Positions 1,492 to 47,715 of a stretch of 47,884 bases of DNA are shown in pieces. The position numbers were made by a program, and so were the translations under genes. The DNA comes from Escherichia phage ZL19. Location of the stretch: sequence record OM258170; one strand, written 5' to 3'. The first letter of the stretch is position 1; every line of letters begins with the position of its first letter. The notes below the pieces were generated by a model. That model did no database searches and was not told the origin of the DNA. It worked only from the letters and a program-made list of their open reading frames with translations.

Positions 1492-1548
1492 AAAGGGATC
1501 ATCCTGACTGGTATAATCCACACATCAGCCACACTAAATGGTAGCAAT

Positions 1549-2001
1549 ATGAGAAAGGTAGATGAATTAATAATAATGATAAGTAGGCAAACGGATGATT
1601 GTATAGAGTGGAATAACTCAAGGACCGTTGATGGATATGGCCAGGTAAGATATGCTGGAACAACTAGAAGGGCGCACAAAGTAGCTTACTGCATAAGCAA
1701 TGATATAGATTATGAATGCGTAAAAGGTGTAATAATGCATTCATGCGATAATCCTTCTTGCATTAATCCAAAGCACCTATCGGTAGGTAGTCAGCATGAT
1801 AACGTGATTGATTGCGTATCAAAGGGCAGGTTCCGAAGCGTTGAGGGGCTTAAGAACCCGAAGTCAATAGTAACCATCGAAGACTCAAGAAAGATGTTAA
1901 GAATGAGAACTGATGGCATGACCTATCAGGATATAGCTGACGCAATGGTCGTTGGCAAAAGCACAGCATACAGAGTGATAACTACAGGATACTTACTATG
2001 A
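1549..2001 (+). CDS. HNH homing endonuclease
   Basis: HNH-type His/Asn/Cys motifs (HSCDNPSCINPKHL, GSQHDN); start uncertain. Confidence 0.55.
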   Translation: MRKVDELIIMISRQTDDCIEWNNSRTVDGYGQVRYAGTTRRAHKVAYCISNDIDYECVKGVIMHSCDNPSCINPKHLSVGSQHDNVIDCVSKGRFRSVEGLKNPKSIVTIEDSRKMLRMRTDGMTYQDIADAMVVGKSTAYRVITTGYLL

Positions 2002-6651: not shown

Positions 6652-8217
6652 ATGTCTTTAGTATGGGAAGAAATGACCATTCAGGAAAAGATGGCCGTCA
6701 AGGCGATATCAGAACACAGCTTCGAGGGCTTTCTTCGCTGCTGGTTCCAAATCACACAAGGCGAGCGATACATCCCTAACTGGCACCACAAATATCTATG
6801 CCGAATTATCGACGAGATTATAGCAGGGGAGCGAAAGGACACCATCATCAACATAGCGCCGGGTAGTGGAAAGACGGAAATCGCTTCAATTCACTTTCCG
6901 GCCTACTCTATGGTTAAGTTAAAGAAGGTTCGCAACCTTAACATCTCTTTTGCCGACTCACTGGTTAAGCGCAACTCCAAGCGCGTACGTGACCTCATCA
7001 AGTCTCAAGAATTTCAGTCACTCTGGCCATGTAAGTTTGGCACTTGCAAAGACGATGAGCTTCAGGTTCTTGATGAGAGTGGCAAGGTGAGATTTGAGTC
7101 AATCTCGAAAGCGGCTGGTGGTCAGATTACTGGTGCTCGAGGTGGGTACATAACTGAAACATATAGCGGCGCGGTTTTGCTGGATGATTTTGACAAGCCC
7201 GCCGATATGCTATCAGCAGTGTACCGCTCGAATAATCACGTAATGCTAAAGAACACGATTCGCTCACGTCGCGCTAGCTCTGTAAAAGGAAAGGCGACAC
7301 CAATAATTTCGATACAGCAGCGACTGCACGTCAATGACTCAACGTATTTCATGATGGAAGGCGGTATGGGTATCGACTTTGACTTGATTAAGATACCTGC
7401 GCTAGTTACTGAGGATTACATAGATTCGCTTCCTGACTGGATTAAAGAACAGTTTGCGGAAGACGTATTAAGCAGTGAGTGCATTGAGCGAGATGGCGTA
7501 AAGTACTACAGCTACTTTCCTAAAAAGGAGTCAGTAAACGACCTTGTTGCGATGTGGGATAGTGACCCGTACACTTTCCTTAGTCAATATCAGCAGGAAC
7601 CTGTAGCACTAGGTGGAAACCTCATTAATGTGGATTGGTTCCAGCGAATCAGCGATACTTTCAGACCTCCAGCTAAGTATGACTATAGATTCATCACATG
7701 CGATACCGCGATGACTACAAAGAGTTATAGTGACTTCTCTGTGCTTCAACTGTGGGGATATAAGGATGCTAAGATTTACCTTATAGACCAGCGTCGAGGC
7801 AAATGGGAGGCGCCTGAGTTGGAGGCGGAACTACTGGACTTCGAGAGGAAATCAAGGGCAACCAGTCAGGTAGATGGCATCCTACGAAAAATCATCATCG
7901 AGAAGAAATCATCCGGAATCGGACTTATTCAGTCGGCAGGCAGAGTGATGAGAACGCCGATAGAGCCATACGTACCTGATAACGACAAGCTAACCAGGGT
8001 AATGAGCGCACTGCCACAGATTAAGGCTGGCAATGTAGTTCTTCCAGAATCAGCGCCGTGGTTAAGCGGATTGCTCACGGAGATTGCAGCTTTTACGGCA
8101 GATGATAGCCACAAACACGATGACCAAATTGACTGTCTAACAATGGCAGTAAACCTTGTTCTCAATATCGCAGATGATCCTAAGTCCAGATTAATGCGCA
8201 TAGCGGGAATTAAATAG
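6652..8217 (+). CDS. terminase large subunit
   Basis: 521 aa, Walker A APGSGKT, C-terminal nuclease-like region, position before portal. Confidence 0.85.
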   Translation: MSLVWEEMTIQEKMAVKAISEHSFEGFLRCWFQITQGERYIPNWHHKYLCRIIDEIIAGERKDTIINIAPGSGKTEIASIHFPAYSMVKLKKVRNLNISFADSLVKRNSKRVRDLIKSQEFQSLWPCKFGTCKDDELQVLDESGKVRFESISKAAGGQITGARGGYITETYSGAVLLDDFDKPADMLSAVYRSNNHVMLKNTIRSRRASSVKGKATPIISIQQRLHVNDSTYFMMEGGMGIDFDLIKIPALVTEDYIDSLPDWIKEQFAEDVLSSECIERDGVKYYSYFPKKESVNDLVAMWDSDPYTFLSQYQQEPVALGGNLINVDWFQRISDTFRPPAKYDYRFITCDTAMTTKSYSDFSVLQLWGYKDAKIYLIDQRRGKWEAPELEAELLDFERKSRATSQVDGILRKIIIEKKSSGIGLIQSAGRVMRTPIEPYVPDNDKLTRVMSALPQIKAGNVVLPESAPWLSGLLTEIAAFTADDSHKHDDQIDCLTMAVNLVLNIADDPKSRLMRIAGIK

Positions 8218-8257
8218 CACTAATTGCTAAACATTGAGGCCACGGATGGCGTATATT
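8215..8257 (+). promoter_or_regulatory. palindrome-type promoter module
   Basis: TAGCACTAATTGCTA 8215-8229 overlapping TerL stop; CCACGGATGGC; -10 TATATT 8252-8257. Confidence 0.5.
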
Positions 8258-16230: not shown

Positions 16231-16235
16231 TTGCA

Positions 16236-16278
16236 TAGCACTTTTTGCTAAAGCACTTATTCAGCTTTACTGTATAGT
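16236..16278 (+). promoter_or_regulatory. palindrome-type promoter module
   Basis: TAGCACTTTTTGCTA 16236-16250; TG-TATAGT 16271-16278; CATCGAAACGAAATGAGAG leader. Confidence 0.55.
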
Positions 16279-21445: not shown

Positions 21446-21943
21446 TTACCATCCAAGAGTTAACTGTGCTTCCTTGTAAAGGTTCTCCATTTCTTCTTTC
21501 CGCTGCTTCTTGACCCTCTTCCACTCAGATAGTGTCTTTCCGCAACTGCTAGCAATCTCAACCTCTGACTTTAACGTTCCGATTAACTCATTGCATTTCT
21601 GCATTACTGATTTATTTTCTTCTTTATACTCCTCTTTAAGAATTCGCTCCATTTCGTTAAAAGCATTAATGTAAGCTTCCTTCCACTTTGCTGCCTCCTT
21701 TCCGGTAAAGCCCATTGCTAGGAATGAGAAACCATCACGTGTAATGTCATAGCAATCTAACTTCTTGTTTTGCTTGGAAATATAAGATGAGGGCCGAAAA
21801 TTAGGCTCTCTAAATTCTTCGCTACAATCAAGTCCTCGAATAGCATCAAGCACGTGCTTGTGCGACTTACCAAACTTTTCTGAAACATCCTTTGATGTGA
21901 CTGTAATGCGACCATCTTTGCCTAAAGATACTAAATCGTTCAT
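21446..21943 (-). CDS. Rha-family phage regulatory protein
   Basis: N-terminal ITVTSKDVSEKFGKSHKHVLDAIRGL matches Rha domain pattern; track ORF trimmed to ATG with AGGTAGG RBS. Confidence 0.6.
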   Translation of the reverse strand: MNDLVSLGKDGRITVTSKDVSEKFGKSHKHVLDAIRGLDCSEEFREPNFRPSSYISKQNKKLDCYDITRDGFSFLAMGFTGKEAAKWKEAYINAFNEMERILKEEYKEENKSVMQKCNELIGTLKSEVEIASSCGKTLSEWKRVKKQRKEEMENLYKEAQLTLGW

Positions 21944-22039
21944 AATATACCTACCTGGTGAGTTGATTATTTGTTTATGGAGATTCAAATATAAAACTCC
22001 TAATAGGATTTGTCAAATCTTAAAATCATAGAGGTGAAG

Positions 22040-22798
22040 ATGTTAACACCAAAAGTTAAACTGGAAATCTTCCAGCACGCAAAAGAAGTTTACCCGCACG
22101 AATGTTGCGGGGTTGTCACGCAGAAAGGTCGCGCGCAGAAATACCACAGAATCAAGAACGCCAGCAAAGACCCAGAGAATGAATTCATCCTTGATTCAAA
22201 TGAGTATGCAGACGTTCTCTTTGAGTTGGCTCACAACGAGTCAATTGTTTATGTAGTTCACTCTCATACAGGCGATGGAGCCACAACAAGACCAAGCCCA
22301 GCGGACATTTGCAGCTGCAATGAGTGCGAGATTCCTTACGTTATCGTCAGCATTCCGGAAGGAGACATGCGGATCCTTGAACCTTCAACCATGCCACTGA
22401 TTGGTCGCCCATGGGGTCTTGGTAGCTTTGACTGCTGGGAGTTGGTAATGGCATTTCACAAGAAATACGGCGTCAAACTGAATGACTACCGCGTTAATTA
22501 CCCGTGGTGGGAGAAGCGATACAATGAGAATATCTATGAAGACAACTGGATTAAGGAAGGATTTGAGCTAGTAAAAACTTCAGATATTCCTATTGGCTCA
22601 ATGATTATGATGCAGGTTCAAAGTGAGGTGACAAACCACGCCGGAATCTATATTGGCAACAACAGATTCATTCATCACCTTTATGGTAAAATGAGTTCAG
22701 TTGATATCTACTCCGATTACTGGCGAGAGCGCACTGTGCGAATCGTTCGCCATAAGGATTTACCAGAGGATGTAATTTATGACCCAGAAACTGATTGA
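22040..22798 (+). CDS. tail assembly protein (lambda K-like, JAB/MPN + NlpC/P60)
   Basis: HECCGVV and HSH motifs plus C-terminal Cys/His region; track ORF 22010 starts at TTG. Confidence 0.7.
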   Translation: MLTPKVKLEIFQHAKEVYPHECCGVVTQKGRAQKYHRIKNASKDPENEFILDSNEYADVLFELAHNESIVYVVHSHTGDGATTRPSPADICSCNECEIPYVIVSIPEGDMRILEPSTMPLIGRPWGLGSFDCWELVMAFHKKYGVKLNDYRVNYPWWEKRYNENIYEDNWIKEGFELVKTSDIPIGSMIMMQVQSEVTNHAGIYIGNNRFIHHLYGKMSSVDIYSDYWRERTVRIVRHKDLPEDVIYDPETD

Positions 22799-23351
22799 TA
22801 TTAAGTTAGGCTTGTCTCTAGGCCGCAAGTTTGGAAAGATTCACCAGATGGCAGTGAATAGCGTGCCAGAGGCTATGCGAGCGCTTTGCTCTCAGATTCC
22901 TGCATTCAAGGAGTTCATGAGCAGCCACGTTGGGCAGAACACAAGATACGCAGTCTTTGTAGATGGTAAAAATGTGAACGAGCATCAAATCTCTGATTTT
23001 AGTGCCGTTCAGGAGATACGCATCTTGCCAATCCCGCAAGGCCGAAAGTCCGGCGGTTTGTTTCAGACAATTTTAGGTGCAGCGCTTATCACGGTTGGCA
23101 TCTTCACTGGGCAGATTTATCTTGTTGGTGCTGGCGTATCTTTGGCAGCAGGTGGTATTGCCCAGCTACTCTCACCGCAGGCAACTGGATTAAAGACCCA
23201 GAACAACCAAACAAGCAACAGAGCATCTTACGCATTTGGCTCCTCTGTAAACACGGTGGCTGCTGGTTATCCGGTTTGCCTTCCTTACGGCTATCGGACG
23301 GTTGGCGGGTCTGTATTTAGTGCAGGCAGTTATAGTGAAGATATTTCTTGA
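22779..23351 (+). CDS. tail assembly protein (lambda I-like)
   Basis: 190-aa ORF overlapping K 3' end, Gly-rich hydrophobic C-terminal half. Confidence 0.6.
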   Translation: MTQKLIDIKLGLSLGRKFGKIHQMAVNSVPEAMRALCSQIPAFKEFMSSHVGQNTRYAVFVDGKNVNEHQISDFSAVQEIRILPIPQGRKSGGLFQTILGAALITVGIFTGQIYLVGAGVSLAAGGIAQLLSPQATGLKTQNNQTSNRASYAFGSSVNTVAAGYPVCLPYGYRTVGGSVFSAGSYSEDIS

Positions 23352-23408
23352 TAATTAAATTATTCTGCATTACAGTCACCTTAAGATTTACTCTTTTGGT
23401 GACTTAAA

Positions 23409-23897
23409 ATGCAAAAATTCGAGAATTACCTTTACGAGATTGATGGAAAGCTATACTGGAAGGAGGCGAGAAACAACTCGGCCAAAATAGAGTCAGAGGC
23501 TGGATTTATTCATCATTCTGGCTATAGGTATGTTAAATTGAATGACAAACAGACTTCATCTCACAGGATTCTTTGGTACTTAAGAAATGGATTCAAGATG
23601 CCACCTAAAGGCATGGAGATTGACCATATAAATGGAAACAGGCTTGACAACTCAGCTAGTAACTTACGGATTGTATCTTCATCGGTAAACTCAAAAAACA
23701 GGTCAAAAAGGTCAGATAACTCAAGCGGCGTTGCGGGAGTTGGATTTCATAAGTTAACTGGAACGTGGTGGGCTACGATATCAATAAACAAAAAGAGAAA
23801 GCACTTGGGGCTATTCGTTGATTGGTTTGAAGCAGTGTGCGCCAGAAAGAGCGCTGAGAACTTAAATGGTGAGTACACCTATAGACATGGTAAGTAA
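23409..23897 (+). CDS. HNH homing endonuclease with AP2-like domain
   Basis: EIDHINGNRLDNSASNLR HNH motif plus GVAGVGFHKLTGTWWATI AP2-like segment; free-standing between I-like and J-like genes. Confidence 0.65.
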   Translation: MQKFENYLYEIDGKLYWKEARNNSAKIESEAGFIHHSGYRYVKLNDKQTSSHRILWYLRNGFKMPPKGMEIDHINGNRLDNSASNLRIVSSSVNSKNRSKRSDNSSGVAGVGFHKLTGTWWATISINKKRKHLGLFVDWFEAVCARKSAENLNGEYTYRHGK

Positions 23898-23905
23898 AAT
23901 CAGAA

Positions 23906-23926
23906 CCCGCCTGGCGCGGGTTTTTT
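23906..23926 (+). terminator. intrinsic terminator
   Basis: CCCGC-CTGGC-GCGGG hairpin plus T6. Confidence 0.6.
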
Positions 23927-23938
23927 ATTTACTGTAGA

Positions 23939-26900
23939 ATGGCACAAATGATCAAAACAAACATGAGGCTTTGTGATATGGCTGAAGAGATTAAGATTTA
24001 TGGTGCCAAGGGTGGTAGCCAAAAGCAGCATCAACCAGTGGAGCAGGAAGATAACCTAATTTCACTTAACAAGGTTAAGGTTCTTTTGGCGGTTGCTGAC
24101 GGTGAGGTGGATCCTAACTTCTCATTGAAGGATTTATACCTTGCTGACGTTCCGGTACAAAATCAGGATGGTAGCTACAACTATGAAGGTGTTCGCGCTG
24201 AGTTCCGTGCTGGCACGCAGTATCAGGACTATATCGCCGGGCTTGACGGTGCTAACTCAGAGATTCAGGCATCCAGAGAAATCAAGAACGATACCCCGTA
24301 CATCATTGCAGTTAACAATACTCAGCTTTCAGCAATTCGAGTTAAGCTATTCTGGCCTCGACTGGTTAAGCAAGAAAGCAATGGAGACCTGAACGGAACA
24401 ACCTGCGAGTATGCAATTGACCTTTCTGTTAATGGTGGCGCTTACCAGGAATACACTCGCGGAGTTGCTAACGGAAAGACCACTACAGGTTACGACCGAA
24501 GCATTCGCGTAAACCTTCCGGCAGAATTTGATAGCGCGCTTGTTCGCATCCGTAAGATTACGCCGGATTCAACAAGTAGCACCCTGGTTAACGGTATGCA
24601 GATTACAACCTATCAGGAAGTAATTGACGCTAAATTCCGCTATCCGCTTACGGCTCTGGTTTACGTTGAGTTTGGTTCTGACTTGTTCCCTAACGGCATC
24701 CCAACAATCTCAATCAAGAAGAGATGGAAGTTGATTCAGGTTCCTACAAACTATAACCCTGAAACCAGAACTTATAGCGGCACATGGAATGGTCTATTCA
24801 AGATGGCATGGTCAAACAACCCAGCATGGGTTCTTTATGACCTAGTAACAAACCGCCGTTACGGACTTGACCAGCGAGAGCTGGGTGTAGAGATTGATAA
24901 GTGGGGCCTGTACGAAGCTGCACAATTCTGTGACCAGATGGTTCCAGATGGCAAGGGTGGCTTAGAGCCGCGTTACCTTTGCGATATGGTTGTACAGAAC
25001 AAGGTTGAGGCTTACACGCTAATTCGTGATATCTGTTCAATCTTTCGCGGCCTGACTTTCTATGACGGCGAAAAGATTGGCATCGTGGTTGATAAGCCTC
25101 GCAACCCATCTTACATCTTCACCAATGATAACGTTGTAAACGGATTGTTCAGTCGCACATTTGCCAGCGATAAAAGTCTTTACACCACGGCAAACGTTCA
25201 GTTTGATGATGTAGAGAACAACTATCAGCAGGATGTTGAGCCAGTATTTGAGCTTGAGGCTACTCGCAGGTTCGGGTTTAATCCAGTCGACCTTACGGCA
25301 ATTGGCTGCACTCGCAGAAGTGAAGCAAACAGACGCGGCAGATGGCTCCTAAAAACCAACCTGAGAAGCGAAACTATCAGCTTCACTACCGGGTTGGAAG
25401 GCATGATTCCGATGATTGGCGAGGTTATTGCAGTTAATGATGCGGCATGGTCGAGCAACTATCAGTTGAACCTTTCCGGCCGCATTGAATCAGTGCAGGG
25501 GCTACAGGTTTTTACACCGTTTAAAGTTGACGCAGCGCCGGGTGACAGAATTCTTCTTAACAAGCCAGACGGAAGCCCGGAGGCAAGAACTATTGCCAGT
25601 GTTTCGGAAGACGGCAGAACAATCAACCTTAACACTGCTTTCAGTTTTGTAGCTCAGCCAGACACTGTGTTCGCAATTGATAAGGATAACCTTGCGCTTC
25701 AGCAGTATGTTGTGACCGGGATTCAAAAGGCAGATACTGACGGCTCTGATTCATTTCAGTACACGATTACTGCGGTGGAGTATGACCCTAACAAGTATGA
25801 CGAGATTGACTACGGCGTTAATATTGTTGACCGTCCAACTTCAGTCGTAGAGCCTGATAGATTGTCGCCACCTGAGAATTTAACAGTGTCAAGCTACAGC
25901 AAGGTTGTTCAAGGATTATCAGTTGAGACGATGGTTATCGGGTGGGATAAAGCGCCATACGCTAAAACCTACAATGTTCAATGGAGGAAAGAGAATGGTA
26001 ACTGGATTAACGTACCCAGAACAGCAAGCACAGAAGTTGATATCGAAGGTATTTACGCAGGAATCTATGACGTTAGGGTTCGCAGCGTATCAGATACTGA
26101 AAACGTGTCTGCCTGGTCTGACATTGTAACGGTGTCGCTAACTGGCAAGATTGGTCGCCCATCGGCGCCTACTGTTATCACGGCATCAACAGATGAGGTA
26201 TTTGGCATCCGTGTTAAGTGGGGTTTCCCTGAAGGCTCTGGTGACACTGCTTACACTGAACTTCAGCAGGTCCCTGATAATGGTGACGGCACTTACAATC
26301 CTGATAACGCAAGTTTGCTTACGTTACTTCCGTATCCGGCATATGAATACTGGCACACTCCGATTCAGCCAGGTAAGGCTATCTGGTATCGCGCAAGATT
26401 GATTGACAGAATAGGTAATACGTCTGATTGGTCTAGTTTCGCAAGAGGCATGAGTACTGACGACGAAAACATTATCAATGATTACATCAAAGTTGATATT
26501 GAAGGCTCAGAAGGATTCAAATACCTCGAACAGAATGCGATTCAAAAGAATCAGGACATCCAGAACCAGGCAGAATCAATTCTTGAGAACGCATTAGCTA
26601 ATGACACTGATGTTCGTCGCATGACAAAGGAGAATGGCGCAAGAAAGGCGGAGTATGTTCAGGCTGTGAATCTCATAGCCGATGAAACTCAGGCGCGCGT
26701 AGAGGCTCTAACGGCCCTTAAGGCGCAGATAGATGATGAAGTTGTAGCATCGATTACAGAAGTTCAGACTGCATTAGCCACAGAGACAGAAGCAAGGACT
26801 ACTGCAGACACGACTCTATCAGCAAGACTTGGTGAAAATGAGGCGGCTTTAAACCAGAAGCTGGACGCATTCTCTAATGCCACATCGACTGGTGTGCAGT

Positions 26901-27295
26901 ACGGAATTAGTCTTGGCCTGAAATACAATGGACAGACTTATTCATCCGGTATGAGCATGGAGCTTGTTGGTACTGGTGGTAATGTTCGCAGTCAGTTCAT
27001 CTTTGACGCAAACAGATTCGCAATCAGTAATGGTATTGGTTCTGGCTCCGGTCAATGGCAGCTCCCCTTCGTTGTAGAGAACGGAAACGTAATCATCCAA
27101 AGCGCGGTAATTGGCGATGGATCAATCAGCAACGCGAAGATTGGTAACTTCATTCAGTCTAATGACTGGGGTACAAATTCAGGCTGGAGGCTAGATAAGG
27201 ATGATGGATTGACGCTTAGGGGTTCCGATCGTGGCAAGATGAGAGTCCTGGACCGGAATGGAGTGGTTAGGGTAAAATTAGGATACTTGGGTTAA
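23939..27295 (+). CDS. central tail fibre / host specificity protein (lambda J-like)
   Basis: 1118 aa; segment QVPTNYNPETRTYSGTWNGLFKMAWSNNPAWVLYDLVTNRRYG aligns by eye with lambda J; start may be ATG 23978. Confidence 0.85.
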   Translation: MAQMIKTNMRLCDMAEEIKIYGAKGGSQKQHQPVEQEDNLISLNKVKVLLAVADGEVDPNFSLKDLYLADVPVQNQDGSYNYEGVRAEFRAGTQYQDYIAGLDGANSEIQASREIKNDTPYIIAVNNTQLSAIRVKLFWPRLVKQESNGDLNGTTCEYAIDLSVNGGAYQEYTRGVANGKTTTGYDRSIRVNLPAEFDSALVRIRKITPDSTSSTLVNGMQITTYQEVIDAKFRYPLTALVYVEFGSDLFPNGIPTISIKKRWKLIQVPTNYNPETRTYSGTWNGLFKMAWSNNPAWVLYDLVTNRRYGLDQRELGVEIDKWGLYEAAQFCDQMVPDGKGGLEPRYLCDMVVQNKVEAYTLIRDICSIFRGLTFYDGEKIGIVVDKPRNPSYIFTNDNVVNGLFSRTFASDKSLYTTANVQFDDVENNYQQDVEPVFELEATRRFGFNPVDLTAIGCTRRSEANRRGRWLLKTNLRSETISFTTGLEGMIPMIGEVIAVNDAAWSSNYQLNLSGRIESVQGLQVFTPFKVDAAPGDRILLNKPDGSPEARTIASVSEDGRTINLNTAFSFVAQPDTVFAIDKDNLALQQYVVTGIQKADTDGSDSFQYTITAVEYDPNKYDEIDYGVNIVDRPTSVVEPDRLSPPENLTVSSYSKVVQGLSVETMVIGWDKAPYAKTYNVQWRKENGNWINVPRTASTEVDIEGIYAGIYDVRVRSVSDTENVSAWSDIVTVSLTGKIGRPSAPTVITASTDEVFGIRVKWGFPEGSGDTAYTELQQVPDNGDGTYNPDNASLLTLLPYPAYEYWHTPIQPGKAIWYRARLIDRIGNTSDWSSFARGMSTDDENIINDYIKVDIEGSEGFKYLEQNAIQKNQDIQNQAESILENALANDTDVRRMTKENGARKAEYVQAVNLIADETQARVEALTALKAQIDDEVVASITEVQTALATETEARTTADTTLSARLGENEAALNQKLDAFSNATSTGVQYGISLGLKYNGQTYSSGMSMELVGTGGNVRSQFIFDANRFAISNGIGSGSGQWQLPFVVENGNVIIQSAVIGDGSISNAKIGNFIQSNDWGTNSGWRLDKDDGLTLRGSDRGKMRVLDRNGVVRVKLGYLG

Positions 27296-27336
27296 TAAAT
27301 TATTGGCGGGTAAATCCCGCCTAAGGTTTTATTTGT

Positions 27337-27708
27337 ATGGCTGGTTTGTATGGTTGGGAGATGTACGATTCTGCGGGGCGGCTTGTAGCTGACAATAGCA
27401 GCATAATGAGCAGGAGGCTATTCACTTATAGCGTGCCACTGATAAGGGCTTTATCTGCAAACATACCATGGGAAGTCTCATTTAATGTTAACTTCTCAAA
27501 TGGAACGCCTTATGCGCATTGCAATACCAGAACAGGGGTGGTGGTCCCTGCATCTACTAACTGGTATCCAGTATCACCTGATATAATAATATCTGGAAAT
27601 GCAGTTACACTCAGGTATACAAACAGGCATGTTTCCTATCCGGACGATCTTGGGTACATACTTGCAGTTGGTGGTGTTGATGTTCACTTAGGAGTTTATA
27701 ATAAATGA
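27337..27708 (+). CDS. hypothetical protein, paralog of next gene (tail/host-range associated?)
   Basis: N-terminus YGWEMYDSAGRLVAD resembles N-terminus of ORF 27705. Confidence 0.4.
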   Translation: MAGLYGWEMYDSAGRLVADNSSIMSRRLFTYSVPLIRALSANIPWEVSFNVNFSNGTPYAHCNTRTGVVVPASTNWYPVSPDIIISGNAVTLRYTNRHVSYPDDLGYILAVGGVDVHLGVYNK

Positions 27709-28502
27709 GTGATTATGGTGTTGAACTAATAAATGACTATGGTTTAAAGGTTGCTGACGCAGAGGATGTAAATTACGTACTAAGAAGTTCTGGTACATTT
27801 AATGATTCAAATTTCTACTCATATGCAAACTCCACATCTGCAATTAGCCTCATGACCACAGGAATGAATTCGCCTCTTCTATTTCTAAAGATGAACGAAA
27901 GTAGGTCAAGGATAAGCCAGAAGCCTGGAGTTAACAAAATATCACCTGATTTTGTTAACCCAAATACCACAATAACAAAGACAAGCATAGACCTATTCAA
28001 GTGGTGGAACATACCGCTAGGAACTGTAGAGTATTACATATTTGACAAGTGGATCCCGCCAGAAAGAAGTGATTATGGAATGCAGATATTTAATGAATCT
28101 GGTTCTATAATCTTTGATTCTGGCTGGTACTTCCTCAAACTTAGGGATGTGCTATGGCTTGATCCAAGTTATCCAAACCATTCAGATCAGGAAGGTGGTA
28201 GTAACTGGACTAACGTCGGGAATATTGTCAACTCCGCGAACGTATCAAACTCAGCATTATCAATGCCTGTTGGTAGGGGGTGGGTTGAAACATCATTGCA
28301 GGGTGGGTACTACTATAATGAATGCTGTCACCTTGACTCATCCGGTAATCTATTTATATCCATAATACCTACAGGTATATACCTTGATGTTTCACCAACT
28401 GGCGGCTGGGTTGGCAATATGAGGACGCAAGTTATGGTTTGCGACACCTCGAGGCTGCCTCTTAATTACAATCCAGTTGAGATAAGAAAGGAAAACAAAT
28501 AA
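27705..28502 (+). CDS. hypothetical Asn/Ser-rich protein with repeated DYG motif
   Basis: ATGA overlap with upstream paralog; two DYG-x-x-x-x-N-x-x-G segments. Confidence 0.4.
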   Translation: MSDYGVELINDYGLKVADAEDVNYVLRSSGTFNDSNFYSYANSTSAISLMTTGMNSPLLFLKMNESRSRISQKPGVNKISPDFVNPNTTITKTSIDLFKWWNIPLGTVEYYIFDKWIPPERSDYGMQIFNESGSIIFDSGWYFLKLRDVLWLDPSYPNHSDQEGGSNWTNVGNIVNSANVSNSALSMPVGRGWVETSLQGGYYYNECCHLDSSGNLFISIIPTGIYLDVSPTGGWVGNMRTQVMVCDTSRLPLNYNPVEIRKENK

Positions 28503-28504
28503 AA

Positions 28505-28528
28505 ATAAGGCCCTTAATGGGCCTTCTT
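28505..28528. terminator. bidirectional terminator
   Basis: AGGCCC-TTAAT-GGGCCT hairpin between convergent genes. Confidence 0.5.
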
Positions 28529-28699
28529 GTTAAAACAATATCCAGCTGGTAAAACCGAATAAAGATTTTGATTTACCTCTCCATTGCTGTATTCACAACC
28601 TCTAATTGTAACTGAGTAGTCACTGATAAGAACTATAGTTCTTTCACCGCCTGAACAACCAGCTAAAATCATTGCAGTGATAACGATTAATTTTTTCAT
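28514..28699 (-). CDS. small lipoprotein (Cor/Llp-like superinfection-exclusion candidate)
   Basis: Signal peptide with lipobox LAGC, 61 aa, located beside tail fibre genes. Confidence 0.45.
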   Translation of the reverse strand: MKKLIVITAMILAGCSGGERTIVLISDYSVTIRGCEYSNGEVNQNLYSVLPAGYCFNKKAH

Positions 28700-28700
28700 C

Positions 28701-28805
28701 TTAGAACCCTTTAAAGTTGCTAGCCAGCATCAGAAGCCATACGAAGAAACCAGTAGCTGCTACACCGAAGATTGCAGAGATTACGTTAGTAGTTAAGTTA
28801 GTCAT
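28701..28805 (-). CDS. small hydrophobic membrane peptide (34 aa)
   Basis: ATG with AAGGA RBS; stop abuts lipoprotein start; single predicted TM; below track cutoff. Confidence 0.35.
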   Translation of the reverse strand: MTNLTTNVISAIFGVAATGFFVWLLMLASNFKGF

Positions 28806-28826
28806 TTTGTATTCCTTAGTAAGTGT

Positions 28827-28866
28827 GTTTCGTTTCGATGGAAAGATAATACCGCATCCTTGCGAT
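28827..28866 (-). repeat. 40-bp perfect repeat (promoter -10 plus leader), copy A
   Basis: Identical to 46447-46486. Confidence 0.8.
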
Positions 28867-28888
28867 AAGTGTTTAGCAATTAGTGCTA
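28846..28888 (-). promoter_or_regulatory. palindrome-type promoter module (minus strand)
   Basis: Motif TAGCACTAATTGCTA on minus strand, -10 TATTAT 37 bp downstream, leader CCATCGAAACGAAAC. Confidence 0.5.
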
Positions 28889-29158
28889 TTAGTGAATATC
28901 CTCACAGCCAGGAATGGACTTAACATTGTAATGCCGATAAGCGAATATCAAGTTAAGAGCCTGCTCGACCGTGCATTTAAGGGCGCCAGAGATAATAAAT
29001 GAAGACTCAGTGATGTGATTTATTAACTCATTTCTGACAGGGTCGTCATCTGCTAGTAACTCTGCGCGCTTAACAAAAAGAGCGTTGTTTACCAGGATTG
29101 TCACAACCTTTTCATTGAGCTCTTTCTTCGCTTTTGCAATCTCTTTCTCGTAGTTCAT
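28889..29158 (-). CDS. hypothetical protein (89 aa)
   Basis: ORF with AAGGCGG RBS. Confidence 0.4.
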   Translation of the reverse strand: MNYEKEIAKAKKELNEKVVTILVNNALFVKRAELLADDDPVRNELINHITESSFIISGALKCTVEQALNLIFAYRHYNVKSIPGCEDIH

Positions 29159-29300
29159 CTTATACCGCCTTGTTTTCGATTTGCATTACGCTATTAACTG
29201 ACATCATAACATTCCGATTCTGCTGCTGAGTAGTGGTTACTACATGCTGCATTTTATTGCAGTCACTTTAAATGACCACATCTTATTGTGGTCATTAGTG

Positions 29301-29948
29301 CTACTTATCTTTAAGTAGCAACTTGATATCAATTCCTAGATTATTCTCAATCAATCCAGTCAGTGCACCTACCTTTTCCTTAAGCGCGAAGCATTGCGAT
29401 TCATACTTAAATCTTTCCTCCATCTCATCAGAACGACTAACCCAACACTGGCGAGCCTCACAAGCCAACATGTCGAGTTTTTCATCGGTATTCTTATCCA
29501 TGAGTAAGATCTCATTTATCCTTTGCTCTGCAACAATGCGCTGACTCAGGTGTGCATTTTGCGCATTAGCCACACCAAGCATCATGCGCGCTTCTTTTAA
29601 CTCATCAATGCTTACCATCTTACTGATTACTTCTTCTTGTTTTTTGACTAACGCCTCAAGTTCATGAAGTCGACGGATAACCCTGTGACGAAGAACGACG
29701 CTATAGCCAGTTATTAGCGTTTCTGTAAGTTCCTTGTTAAGTAAAATCTCTGATGTATAGCCGCGATTGTCCGTAAGTACTTGATAATCATCATGACCCA
29801 AATCTGGGGCATCGTTATAATGTAACAATTCATTGATCATTTCCTTTGTGTCGCGAACGACGTGATCATGACGCTTACCTGTCAATTCAGCAATTTCCTT
29901 CGTGCTCATCATGGTTTTTGGCTGTTCTTTGTACGCCTCAATGTTCAT
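29301..29948 (-). CDS. Rha-family regulatory protein with coiled-coil C-terminus
   Basis: MSTKEIAELTGKRHDHVVRDTKEMI matches Rha pattern; track ORF trimmed to ATG with AAGAGAGA RBS. Confidence 0.55.
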   Translation of the reverse strand: MNIEAYKEQPKTMMSTKEIAELTGKRHDHVVRDTKEMINELLHYNDAPDLGHDDYQVLTDNRGYTSEILLNKELTETLITGYSVVLRHRVIRRLHELEALVKKQEEVISKMVSIDELKEARMMLGVANAQNAHLSQRIVAEQRINEILLMDKNTDEKLDMLACEARQCWVSRSDEMEERFKYESQCFALKEKVGALTGLIENNLGIDIKLLLKDK

Positions 29949-30052
29949 TTTAGTCTCTCTTATGTTTTTCATGTCTCAGATTTTAGCCATCGTTTGGTTT
30001 TGGTCTATCGATTTTCGGTAGACCAAGCAGCACCATTGCCGCCATGCGCCTA

Positions 30053-30095
30053 AATATACCCAAAGATAGCTAGTTGTCTTTAGCAATTGGTGCTA
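30053..30095 (-). promoter_or_regulatory. palindrome-type promoter module (minus strand) for Rha gene
   Basis: Motif TAGCACCAATTGCTA on minus strand, -10 TATATT at 30053-30058. Confidence 0.5.
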
Positions 30096-30122
30096 TTTAT
30101 CGCCAATTCCACCATAAATCAC

Positions 30123-30215
30123 AGTTACACGTAACCGATGTAACTCGATGTATACAATCTCATCCGCGGAAAATGATATACGCACTGTTACGCCAATTTA
30201 CGCATTAGTTACATT
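30123..30215. repeat. GTTAC(A/G)C iteron-like repeats including palindrome GTTACACGTAAC
   Basis: Several GTTACGC/TTTACGC/GTTACAT copies in non-coding DNA. Confidence 0.5.
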
Positions 30216-40093: not shown

Positions 40094-40278
40094 TTGGCAT
40101 CTGCGTAAAAACAAATGGCTTCTTTACACTTCTTGAGGATTATGAAATTAATTTCGATTCAAATGAAATAACAGTGTTAAGCGATGATGGGTGCTATTGG
40201 TTCCTTAGTTATCAAGGTGATGGTTATTACGGTTGCAGAGATTCAGGCGGAAAAGAGGTTAGTTTCTTAGTCGAATAG
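40090..40278 (+). CDS. hypothetical protein (62 aa)
   Basis: ATGA overlap; GGAGGA RBS. Confidence 0.4.
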   Translation: MIGICVKTNGFFTLLEDYEINFDSNEITVLSDDGCYWFLSYQGDGYYGCRDSGGKEVSFLVE

Positions 40279-40318
40279 CACTTTTTGTTAAAAATCAAAT
40301 CCATGGATGGATTATATT
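40276..40318 (+). promoter_or_regulatory. palindrome-type promoter module (variant)
   Basis: TAGCACTTTTTGTTA 40276-40290; CCATGGATGG; -10 TATATT 40313-40318. Confidence 0.45.
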
Positions 40319-47652: not shown

Positions 47653-47695
47653 ATATTACCAGTTTCTTGATTTATGTCTTTAGCAAAAAGTGCTA
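47653..47695 (-). promoter_or_regulatory. palindrome-type promoter module (minus strand)
   Basis: Motif TAGCACTTTTTGCTA on minus strand at 47681-47695, -10 TAATAT at 47653-47658. Confidence 0.45.
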
Positions 47696-47715
47696 TTCGT
47701 CAGATTTATGGATTG

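Follow-up and report, generated by a model that had tools for sequence, protein, structure and literature searches.

The tail-tip genes of Escherichia phage ZL19 raise a simple question: why does an open reading frame (ORF) for a small nuclease-like protein stand between tail assembly gene I and host-specificity gene J, and how did it get there? The ORF occupies positions 23409..23897 on the plus strand of sequence record OM258170; the whole stretch of 47,884 nucleotides was analysed and is referred to here as the window. The first-pass annotation, made from the letters alone, took the gene for a mobile element, a reading borne out here except for its claim that the gene has a terminator of its own. 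The evidence presented here makes it very probable that the ORF is a free-standing HNH-AP2 homing endonuclease gene, combining an I-HmuI-like nuclease with an AP2-like domain, that was inserted between I and J and is mobile. Such an assignment fits the label "HNH homing endonuclease" already attached to the same gene in phages IME253 and phiA2-1, and it is as an ordinary selfish homing endonuclease gene that the ORF is best understood.

The tail-tip locus and its surroundings

Over its full length, the window is colinear with coliphage Rtp (Drexlerviridae, Braunvirinae; ~90% identity), and its nearest relatives are IME253, Rao1 and phiA2-1; it is therefore a complete Rtp-like phage genome. Pfam and PHROG matches identify the neighbours of the nuclease ORF as the lambda-like tail-tip genes M, L, K, I and J. 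Gene K (22040..22798, plus strand) matches Pfam Prok-JAB (4.8e-15) and NLPC_P60 (3.2e-16) as well as PHROG 30; its frame is open from TTG 22010, and the ATG at 22040 agrees with the Rao1 annotation. Tail assembly gene I (22779..23351, plus strand) matches Lambda_tail_I (2.1e-09) and PHROG 32 (2.2e-64). These matches, with those of J, bear out the earlier description of a K-I-J order interrupted by a nuclease gene.

Gene J, the central tail fibre or host-specificity gene, spans 23939..27295 on the plus strand in its longest form and matches FNIII-A_GpJ (2.5e-39), Phage_Tail_Tip (9.6e-32) and Phage-tail_3 (4.2e-16). The ATG at 23939 has no Shine-Dalgarno sequence. A second ATG at 23978, with GAGG 9 nt upstream, is the start chosen in the Rao1 annotation and in Logan metagenome gene calls, and it is probably the true start of J. 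The genes that flank the nuclease ORF, I and J, are both of full length, so that the insert is intergenic and lies in neither an intron nor an intein.

The surrounding operon shows further variability. Between tail genes L and K, the window carries a Rha-family regulator gene on the minus strand (21446..21988; Phage_pRha 1.8e-31, plus ORF11CD3). In Rtp (rtp40) and AHP42 (gp22), this slot is taken by an HNH-AP2 paralogue, and in JeanPiccard and Sd1 it is empty, which makes it a second insertion hotspot of the tail-tip operon. Downstream of J, the region 27203..30126 does not align to Rtp. It includes two plus-strand ORFs, one without a family match (27337..27708) and one matching PHROG 4062, of unknown function (27705..28502), together with a minus-strand gene for a small lipoprotein (28514..28699) that has a weak match to the Cor superinfection-exclusion family (7e-05). 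In Rtp, the region after J carries rtp44 and rtp45 on the minus strand, and the module downstream of this host-range gene appears, from the alignment, to have been swapped relative to Rtp.

An I-HmuI-like nuclease domain

The ORF begins with ATG, encodes 162 amino acids and matches the Pfam HNH_3 family over residues 52-95 (E=1.1e-13; 51 bits against a cut-off of 24.8). This profile search, which the first-pass annotation had proposed, places the expected HNH motif at the expected ORF. The protein also matches PHROG 99, "HNH endonuclease" (7.9e-55), and HNH_3 is matched by all 65 of the 65 homologues collected. Among solved structures, I-HmuI (1U3E) is the sole relative detectable by sequence, at E=0.02 with the single protein and at E=3.8e-08 with the 65-member family profile. 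Together, HNH_3 and the I-HmuI alignment define a beta-beta-alpha-metal core at residues 52-97 (nt 23562-23699, plus strand).

Within this core, D72, H73, N85, N94 and N97 align with I-HmuI D74, H75, N87, N96 and N99, which act as catalytic residues in that enzyme. D72, H73, N85 and N97 never vary across the 65 homologues, and conservation of N94 is at least 90%. Because the catalytic residues align with those of I-HmuI and are nearly invariant in the family, the nuclease domain looks intact. The AlphaFold model of the protein (pLDDT 92.1) agrees with this picture: strands 69-73 and 86-90 and helix 91-95 surround the HNH motif, and beta-hairpins precede it. A Foldseek search with the model returns 1u3e as its top match (92 columns, rmsd 3.7, E=2.7e-03). 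Every Foldseek E-value in this analysis lies above 0.001, as expected because each match covers only one of two small domains.

Small HNH proteins encoded by phages also assist terminase during packaging, as in HK97-like phages, and the ORF shares both its size class and its HNH nature with them. Its position is quite different: it belongs to the tail-tip module and stands ~16 kb away from the terminase genes, and it is missing from most close relatives, which package normally. The homing-type HNH_3/I-HmuI nuclease joined to an AP2 domain points the same way. A role as a packaging helper is rejected on position and dispensability, and its probability is negligible.

Other nuclease genes in the window and its relatives

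A second HNH gene had been placed in the early region, at 1549..2001 on the plus strand. A free-standing nuclease gene is indeed present there (PHROG 6254, "HNH endonuclease", 1.3e-24), but it is of another type, a His-Me nuclease with a C-terminal HTH. Its Pfam matches to zf-His_Me_endon and HTH_7 both fall below threshold, and BLAST detects no similarity between it and the I-J nuclease gene. Window positions 1525-1998 have no counterpart in Rtp, which marks an indel.

Related phages harbour paralogues of ~160 aa with the HNH-AP2 architecture, which are 32-49% identical to one another and to the window gene. They include JeanPiccard bas02_0018 (L004, 866..1342), AHP42 gp22 (L005, 1784..2272) and Rtp rtp20 and rtp40 (L006, 6388..6864 and 21464..21979). 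In Drexlerviridae, the paralogues occupy slots between H and M, between L and K, and between the genes of the small and the large terminase subunit, and every slot is polymorphic. The Rtp gene between the terminase subunits, rtp20, is missing from the window phage.

A diverged AP2-like domain

The C-terminal part of the protein was predicted to contain an AP2-like DNA-binding segment, and here the outcome depends on the level of comparison. A direct match to Pfam AP2 (PF00847) is absent, both for the whole protein at E<=0.01 and for residues 99-162 at E<=10. At the family level, PF00847 is matched by 23 of the 65 homologues (best 3e-13), and the C-terminal ~50 positions of the family profile match the AP2 domains of WRI1 (E=0.0054) and TEM1 (E=0.054). 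The AlphaFold model shows strands 111-114, 119-126 and 129-136 followed by helix 139-153, within residues 111-153, and this part superposes on the AP2 domains of TEM1 (56 columns, rmsd 2.6 A) and AtERF1 (49 columns, rmsd 1.4 A). The profile and the predicted fold thus give good but not overwhelming evidence for a weak AP2-like domain at residues ~105-154 (nt 23721-23870, plus strand), and the prediction holds at these two levels while failing at the level of a Pfam match to the protein itself.

Insertion polymorphism at the I-J junction

Comparison with relatives that lack the gene reveals a precise insertion. At 587 nt, the I-J spacer of the window is exactly 546 nt longer than the 41-nt spacer of Rtp, JeanPiccard and AHP42. 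The difference corresponds to an insert at 23349..23894 (plus strand; 546 bp, with boundaries good to a few nt), which brings gene I a new stop codon, a 57-nt leader and the nuclease ORF. Empty I-J sites are found in Rtp, JeanPiccard, AHP42 and DTL, and in each insert-free relative examined the empty site is intact.

Empty sites are also the common state. When an artificial "empty-site" query was compared with GenBank phages, it was at least 80% covered in 118 records, and in an evenly spaced sample of the full-length rows from these records each gave one unbroken match, except Rao1. Of the 12 IMG/VR contigs that have the conserved junction block, ten are empty, and two, Sd1 and IME253, are occupied. 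Occupied sites were seen only in the window clade (Rao1, IME253 and phiA2-1), in Sd1 and in three metagenomic contigs (L007-L009). The I-J junction, whose comparison among relatives had been suggested as a check, is polymorphic for the insert, and the gene is not conserved at this position in all relatives.

Where the gene does occur, it keeps to this place. The GenBank orthologues are 100% identical in amino acid sequence in IME253 and phiA2-1, 99.4% in Rao1 (gp34) and 88.9% in Shigella phage Sd1 (gp29), which belongs to another subfamily, Rogunavirinae. The proteins on the metagenomic contigs (P0002 and P0003) are 75% identical, and the gene lies between I and J in each contig. All copies with at least 74% amino acid identity therefore sit between I and J, across two phage subfamilies. 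The next-closest homologue checked, from phage KFS-SE2 (48% identity), has an unrelated location.

This distribution bears on whether the protein has been domesticated by the phage, as an AP2-type regulator of tail or J expression or as a weapon that cuts the genomes of co-infecting competitors (marker exclusion, interference competition). AP2 is a transcription-factor fold, the gene adjoins both the host-range gene J and a terminator, T4 I-TevI is also an autorepressor (PMC2988022), and cutting a competitor would require the same biochemistry as homing. Most relatives, however, build tails without the gene, so that tail expression can do without it; the nuclease residues are conserved; and a sporadic, site-faithful distribution is the pattern of a selfish element. 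Any competitive benefit would follow from homing rather than replace it. Domestication in either form is accordingly highly improbable, and a selfish homing endonuclease gene remains the preferred reading.

Cassette boundaries and the ancestral terminator

The right edge of the insert lies at the nuclease stop codon. In a multiple alignment, sequence from TAA 23895-23897 onward aligns with the empty allele, and from there on carriers read like the empty allele of their own clade: the window resembles Rtp, and Sd1 and L008 resemble AHP42. A terminator scan places a hairpin and T run, ACCCGCCTGGCGCGGGTTTTTT, at 23902..23930 on the plus strand (-12.9 kcal/mol), the hairpin proper covering 23902..23924. 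This structure lies outside the insert, and every empty site has the same hairpin 7 nt past the stop codon of gene I. It is therefore the ancestral I-J terminator, and the earlier proposal that the nuclease gene carries its own terminator does not hold. The terminator is likewise rejected as part of the cassette, which was inserted upstream of it.

At the left edge, the cassette takes along the end of gene I, its last ~7 codons and its stop codon (about 23329..23351). The sequence AGTTATAGTGAAGATATTTCTTGA at the end of gene I is common to the window and Sd1 and does not occur in Rtp, JeanPiccard or AHP42, and the high-identity tract shared by L008 and L009 begins ~30 nt before the gene I stop codon. 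Recoding of the target for immunity was considered as a reason for the altered codons and rejected: almost the same variants occur in the empty alleles L015 and L016, and gene I of L007 ends differently. The altered gene I codons are better read, from these alignments, as donor flank transferred together with the cassette.

Beyond the insert, a block of 46 nt (23905..23950) covers the I-J terminator and the first codons of J. It shows no differences among Rtp, JeanPiccard, AHP42, Sd1, L007 and L008, phages that otherwise differ by ~25-30%. The window clade differs from this block at three positions (23913, 23915 and 23932) and L009 at one. Such conservation is unusual for a non-coding element and makes the block a plausible candidate for the nuclease recognition site. 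The three substitutions of the window clade might be taken as protection against self-cleavage, a reading that found no support; Sd1, L007 and L008 carry the gene with an unaltered block, and in L009, also a carrier, the block differs at one other base. A simpler reading of positions 23913, 23915 and 23932 is a recombination endpoint at about 23933.

Lateral transfer and recombination

Two of the metagenomic contigs offer the clearest view of movement. Aligned with each other, L008 and L009 show 98.2% DNA identity in the leader and 97.9% in the ORF, but 73.1% at the 3' end of gene I and 75.7% at the 5' end of J. Their backbones belong to different groups: the J gene of L009 is Rtp-like (90% to the window), and that of L008 is Rogunavirus-like (92% to AHP42). 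A near-identical cassette in two diverged backbones is direct evidence, at the sequence level, of recent lateral transfer into a specific site, and the mobility proposed in the first-pass annotation gains its strongest support here. The discordance between element and backbone is based on pairwise identities rather than formal trees.

The pair formed by the window and Sd1 gives a weaker signal that seems to point in the same direction. At the DNA level, their nuclease genes share 80% identity and their M, L, K, I and J genes 64-74%, and at third codon positions the identity is 56% in the nuclease gene, compared with 42-50% in the flanking genes. Because the cassettes are just 80% identical, any transfer between these lineages would be old. 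The cassette also has a GC content of 38.8%, against 44.5% genome-wide, which places it in the lowest 4.5% of equal-sized windows.

An ancestral origin would explain part of this pattern. The common ancestor of Braunvirinae and Rogunavirinae could have carried the gene between I and J, and the gene could then have descended vertically, been lost precisely from most lineages and become an immobile relic; the shared position in both subfamilies and the 20% DNA divergence between the window and Sd1 copies, too large for a recent transfer, are compatible with such a history. Vertical descent does not produce ~98% identical cassettes in L008 and L009 backbones with 73-76% flanks, though, and it would need many independent, base-perfect deletions that each restored the same 41-nt junction. 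The nuclease genes of the window and Sd1 are more alike than any flanking structural gene, third positions included, and the catalytic residues are intact. An immobile relic is thus clearly improbable, and a mobile homing endonuclease gene accounts for the distribution more simply.

Recombination close to the gene is visible as well. A tract ~99.5% identical to Rtp (23933..25400, plus strand) begins ~35 nt past the nuclease stop codon, whereas to the left of 23933, in K and I, identity to Rtp is 65-95%. The genome contains 12 Rtp-like tracts of at least 98% identity, and by a rough estimate (24 ends in 47.9 kb) the chance of a tract end within ~40 nt of a given point is ~4%. For the expectation that such genes mark recombination hotspots, the window offers a single case, one breakpoint relative to Rtp within ~35 nt of the stop codon. 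This coincidence is mildly unlikely by chance and is consistent with nuclease genes marking exchange boundaries, a pattern reported for phage nuclease genes including HNH genes with AP2 domains (Barth, Dunham & Seed 2023, PMC10448857); the HNH-AP2 family is also described in PMC2248197.

A leader hairpin and a promoter-like site

The 57-nt leader contains features that may govern expression of the nuclease. A promoter-like site, TTGATA-N17-TACAGT (23348..23376, plus strand), has a -35 element that overlaps the gene I stop codon. In a consensus scan, this site has 9 of 12 matches, and 5 such sites were found against 3.0 expected, which is not significant alone. Four diverged cassettes retain the -35 and -10 hexamers at a spacing of 16-17 nt but vary in the first ~10 nt of the spacer.

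Overlapping this site, the leader RNA is predicted to fold into a hairpin at 23366..23413 (plus strand) with a minimum free energy of -20.1 kcal/mol (z = -6.4; none of 200 shuffles folds as well). In the predicted stem, the AUG at 23409-23411 falls within AAUGCA, the partner of UGCAUU, and the Shine-Dalgarno sequence GGUGA at 23398-23402 falls within GGUGACU, the partner of AGUCACC. The same fold is predicted for Sd1 (-28.7 kcal/mol), L007 (-21.2 kcal/mol) and L008 (-18.6 kcal/mol). Among the four distinct cassettes, covariation is absent from the stem: no pair has changed on both sides, and 10 of the 15 pairs never vary. The -10 hexamer lies inside the 5' arm, so that the putative promoter would yield RNA without this arm; an RNA with its 5' end at 23385 has almost no predicted structure (-1.1 kcal/mol). 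The paralogues rtp40, AHP42 gp22 and JeanPiccard 0018 have different stems with the same layout, the -10 over the 5' arm and the Shine-Dalgarno sequence in the 3' arm.

A separate motif emerged from the same comparisons. The element ATAGCACTNNNTGKTAA occurs in 19 copies in the window with up to 2 mismatches, against 0.76 expected, for example at 1475-1491, 8214-8230, 16235-16251 and 40275-40291 on the plus strand and at 28873-28889 and 47680-47696 on the minus strand. Its strand mostly matches local gene orientation, and in relatives it stands ~65-70 nt upstream of several nuclease start codons, followed by a hairpin and TATAAT. A nuclease-specific role for this ATAGCAC..TTGCTAA motif was rejected given its 19 copies genome-wide, and it is probably the general promoter element of the phage. 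Within the I-J cassette and upstream of the I-J nuclease gene, the motif is absent.

A model for homing at the I-J junction

These observations can be combined into a model in which we infer cleavage activity, a target site, use of the promoter-like site and translational control. Members of the lineage always sit at one point, between the final codon of gene I and the conserved I-J terminator in T1/Rtp-like phages. During co-infection, the enzyme would nick or cut the empty I-J junction of a related phage, and repair would copy the 546-bp cassette with short flanks from the carrier genome. Such copying would spread the gene and could drag neighbouring I and J sequence along.

The tail operon stays intact upon insertion. 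Gene I gains the stop codon supplied by the cassette, the nuclease ORF ends on the old gene I stop codon, and neither the old terminator nor the start region of J is touched. On read-through tail mRNA, the predicted hairpin would bury the ribosome-binding site and the AUG. Initiation at the promoter-like site in the 5' arm would instead give a shorter transcript in which the hairpin cannot form.

A more ambitious extension combines three ideas. The AP2 domain would read the conserved GC-rich terminator block ACCCGCCTAGTGCGGGTTTTTTATTTAGTGTAGAATGGCACAAATG; homing would act as a recurrent crossover that shuttles J between subfamilies; and the promoter-in-hairpin arrangement would be a general, independently evolved control module for homing endonuclease genes in T1-like phages. 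The block ACCCGCCTAGTGCGGGTTTTTTATTTAGTGTAGAATGGCACAAATG is identical in Rtp, JeanPiccard, AHP42, Sd1, L007 and L008 and differs at one to three bases in the window clade and L009. Taken as a whole, this extension is speculative and rather unlikely.

The locus shows the cassette of a free-standing homing endonuclease gene cleanly and at base resolution, with near-identical copies in two diverged backbones beside J. The gene is a standard member of a known family, and it has little importance beyond correct annotation. Such sites can nevertheless seed mosaicism in tail genes, and they should be masked in Drexlerviridae phylogenies and when host-range swaps are read from sequence. Hairpin-promoter control, if confirmed, would extend the T4 paradigm to T1-like phages.

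Comparison with known systems

The closest counterparts are the GenBank orthologues in IME253, phiA2-1, Rao1 and Sd1, which represent the same gene at the same I-J position, already under the name HNH homing endonuclease, with no difference of substance; functional work on these four was not found in the literature searched. Among proteins of solved structure, the nearest is I-HmuI, the intron-encoded HNH nicking enzyme of the Bacillus phage SPO1, which shares the DH...N...N constellation and the N-terminal beta-hairpin region. The resemblance is limited to 92 aligned columns at 25% identity, and the I-HmuI gene resides in an intron, whereas the window gene is free-standing. The C-terminal DNA-binding part of I-HmuI is helical and not of the AP2 type.

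For the control of expression, the precedent comes from T4-like phages, in which I-TevI, I-TevII, I-TevIII, segB and Aeh1 mobE are regulated by hairpins and promoters (PMC2988022). In the window cassette, a predicted hairpin would likewise bury the ribosome-binding site on read-through RNA, and a putative promoter in or near the 5' arm would give transcripts that cannot fold, but this promoter-like site looks sigma-70-like, with -35 and -10 elements, and unlike a T4 late promoter. By analogy, expression of the window nuclease is probably restrained as in T4 homing endonucleases.

The exchange boundaries described by Barth et al. (PMC10448857) are similar in two respects: a sharp change of identity to Rtp adjoins the window nuclease gene, and the gene belongs to the HNH-AP2 class. 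That study concerns ICP1 and other phage groups, while the window contributes one breakpoint of modest statistical weight.

PMC10448857 and PMC2248197, citing Magnani, Sjolander & Hake 2004 (PMC520932), describe HNH-AP2 proteins as a phage homing endonuclease family with several copies in the coliphages T1, Rtp and T5 and in Xanthomonas phages. Like them, the window protein joins an N-terminal HNH(N) nuclease to a C-terminal AP2-like DNA-binding domain, and its gene, at ~160 aa, is likewise free-standing, intergenic and sporadic among related phages. Two features set it apart: its AP2 segment has diverged beyond what the Pfam model recognises, and its lineage is strictly faithful to one site, in contrast to the sequence-independent spread inferred for the Xanthomonas-phage nucleases.
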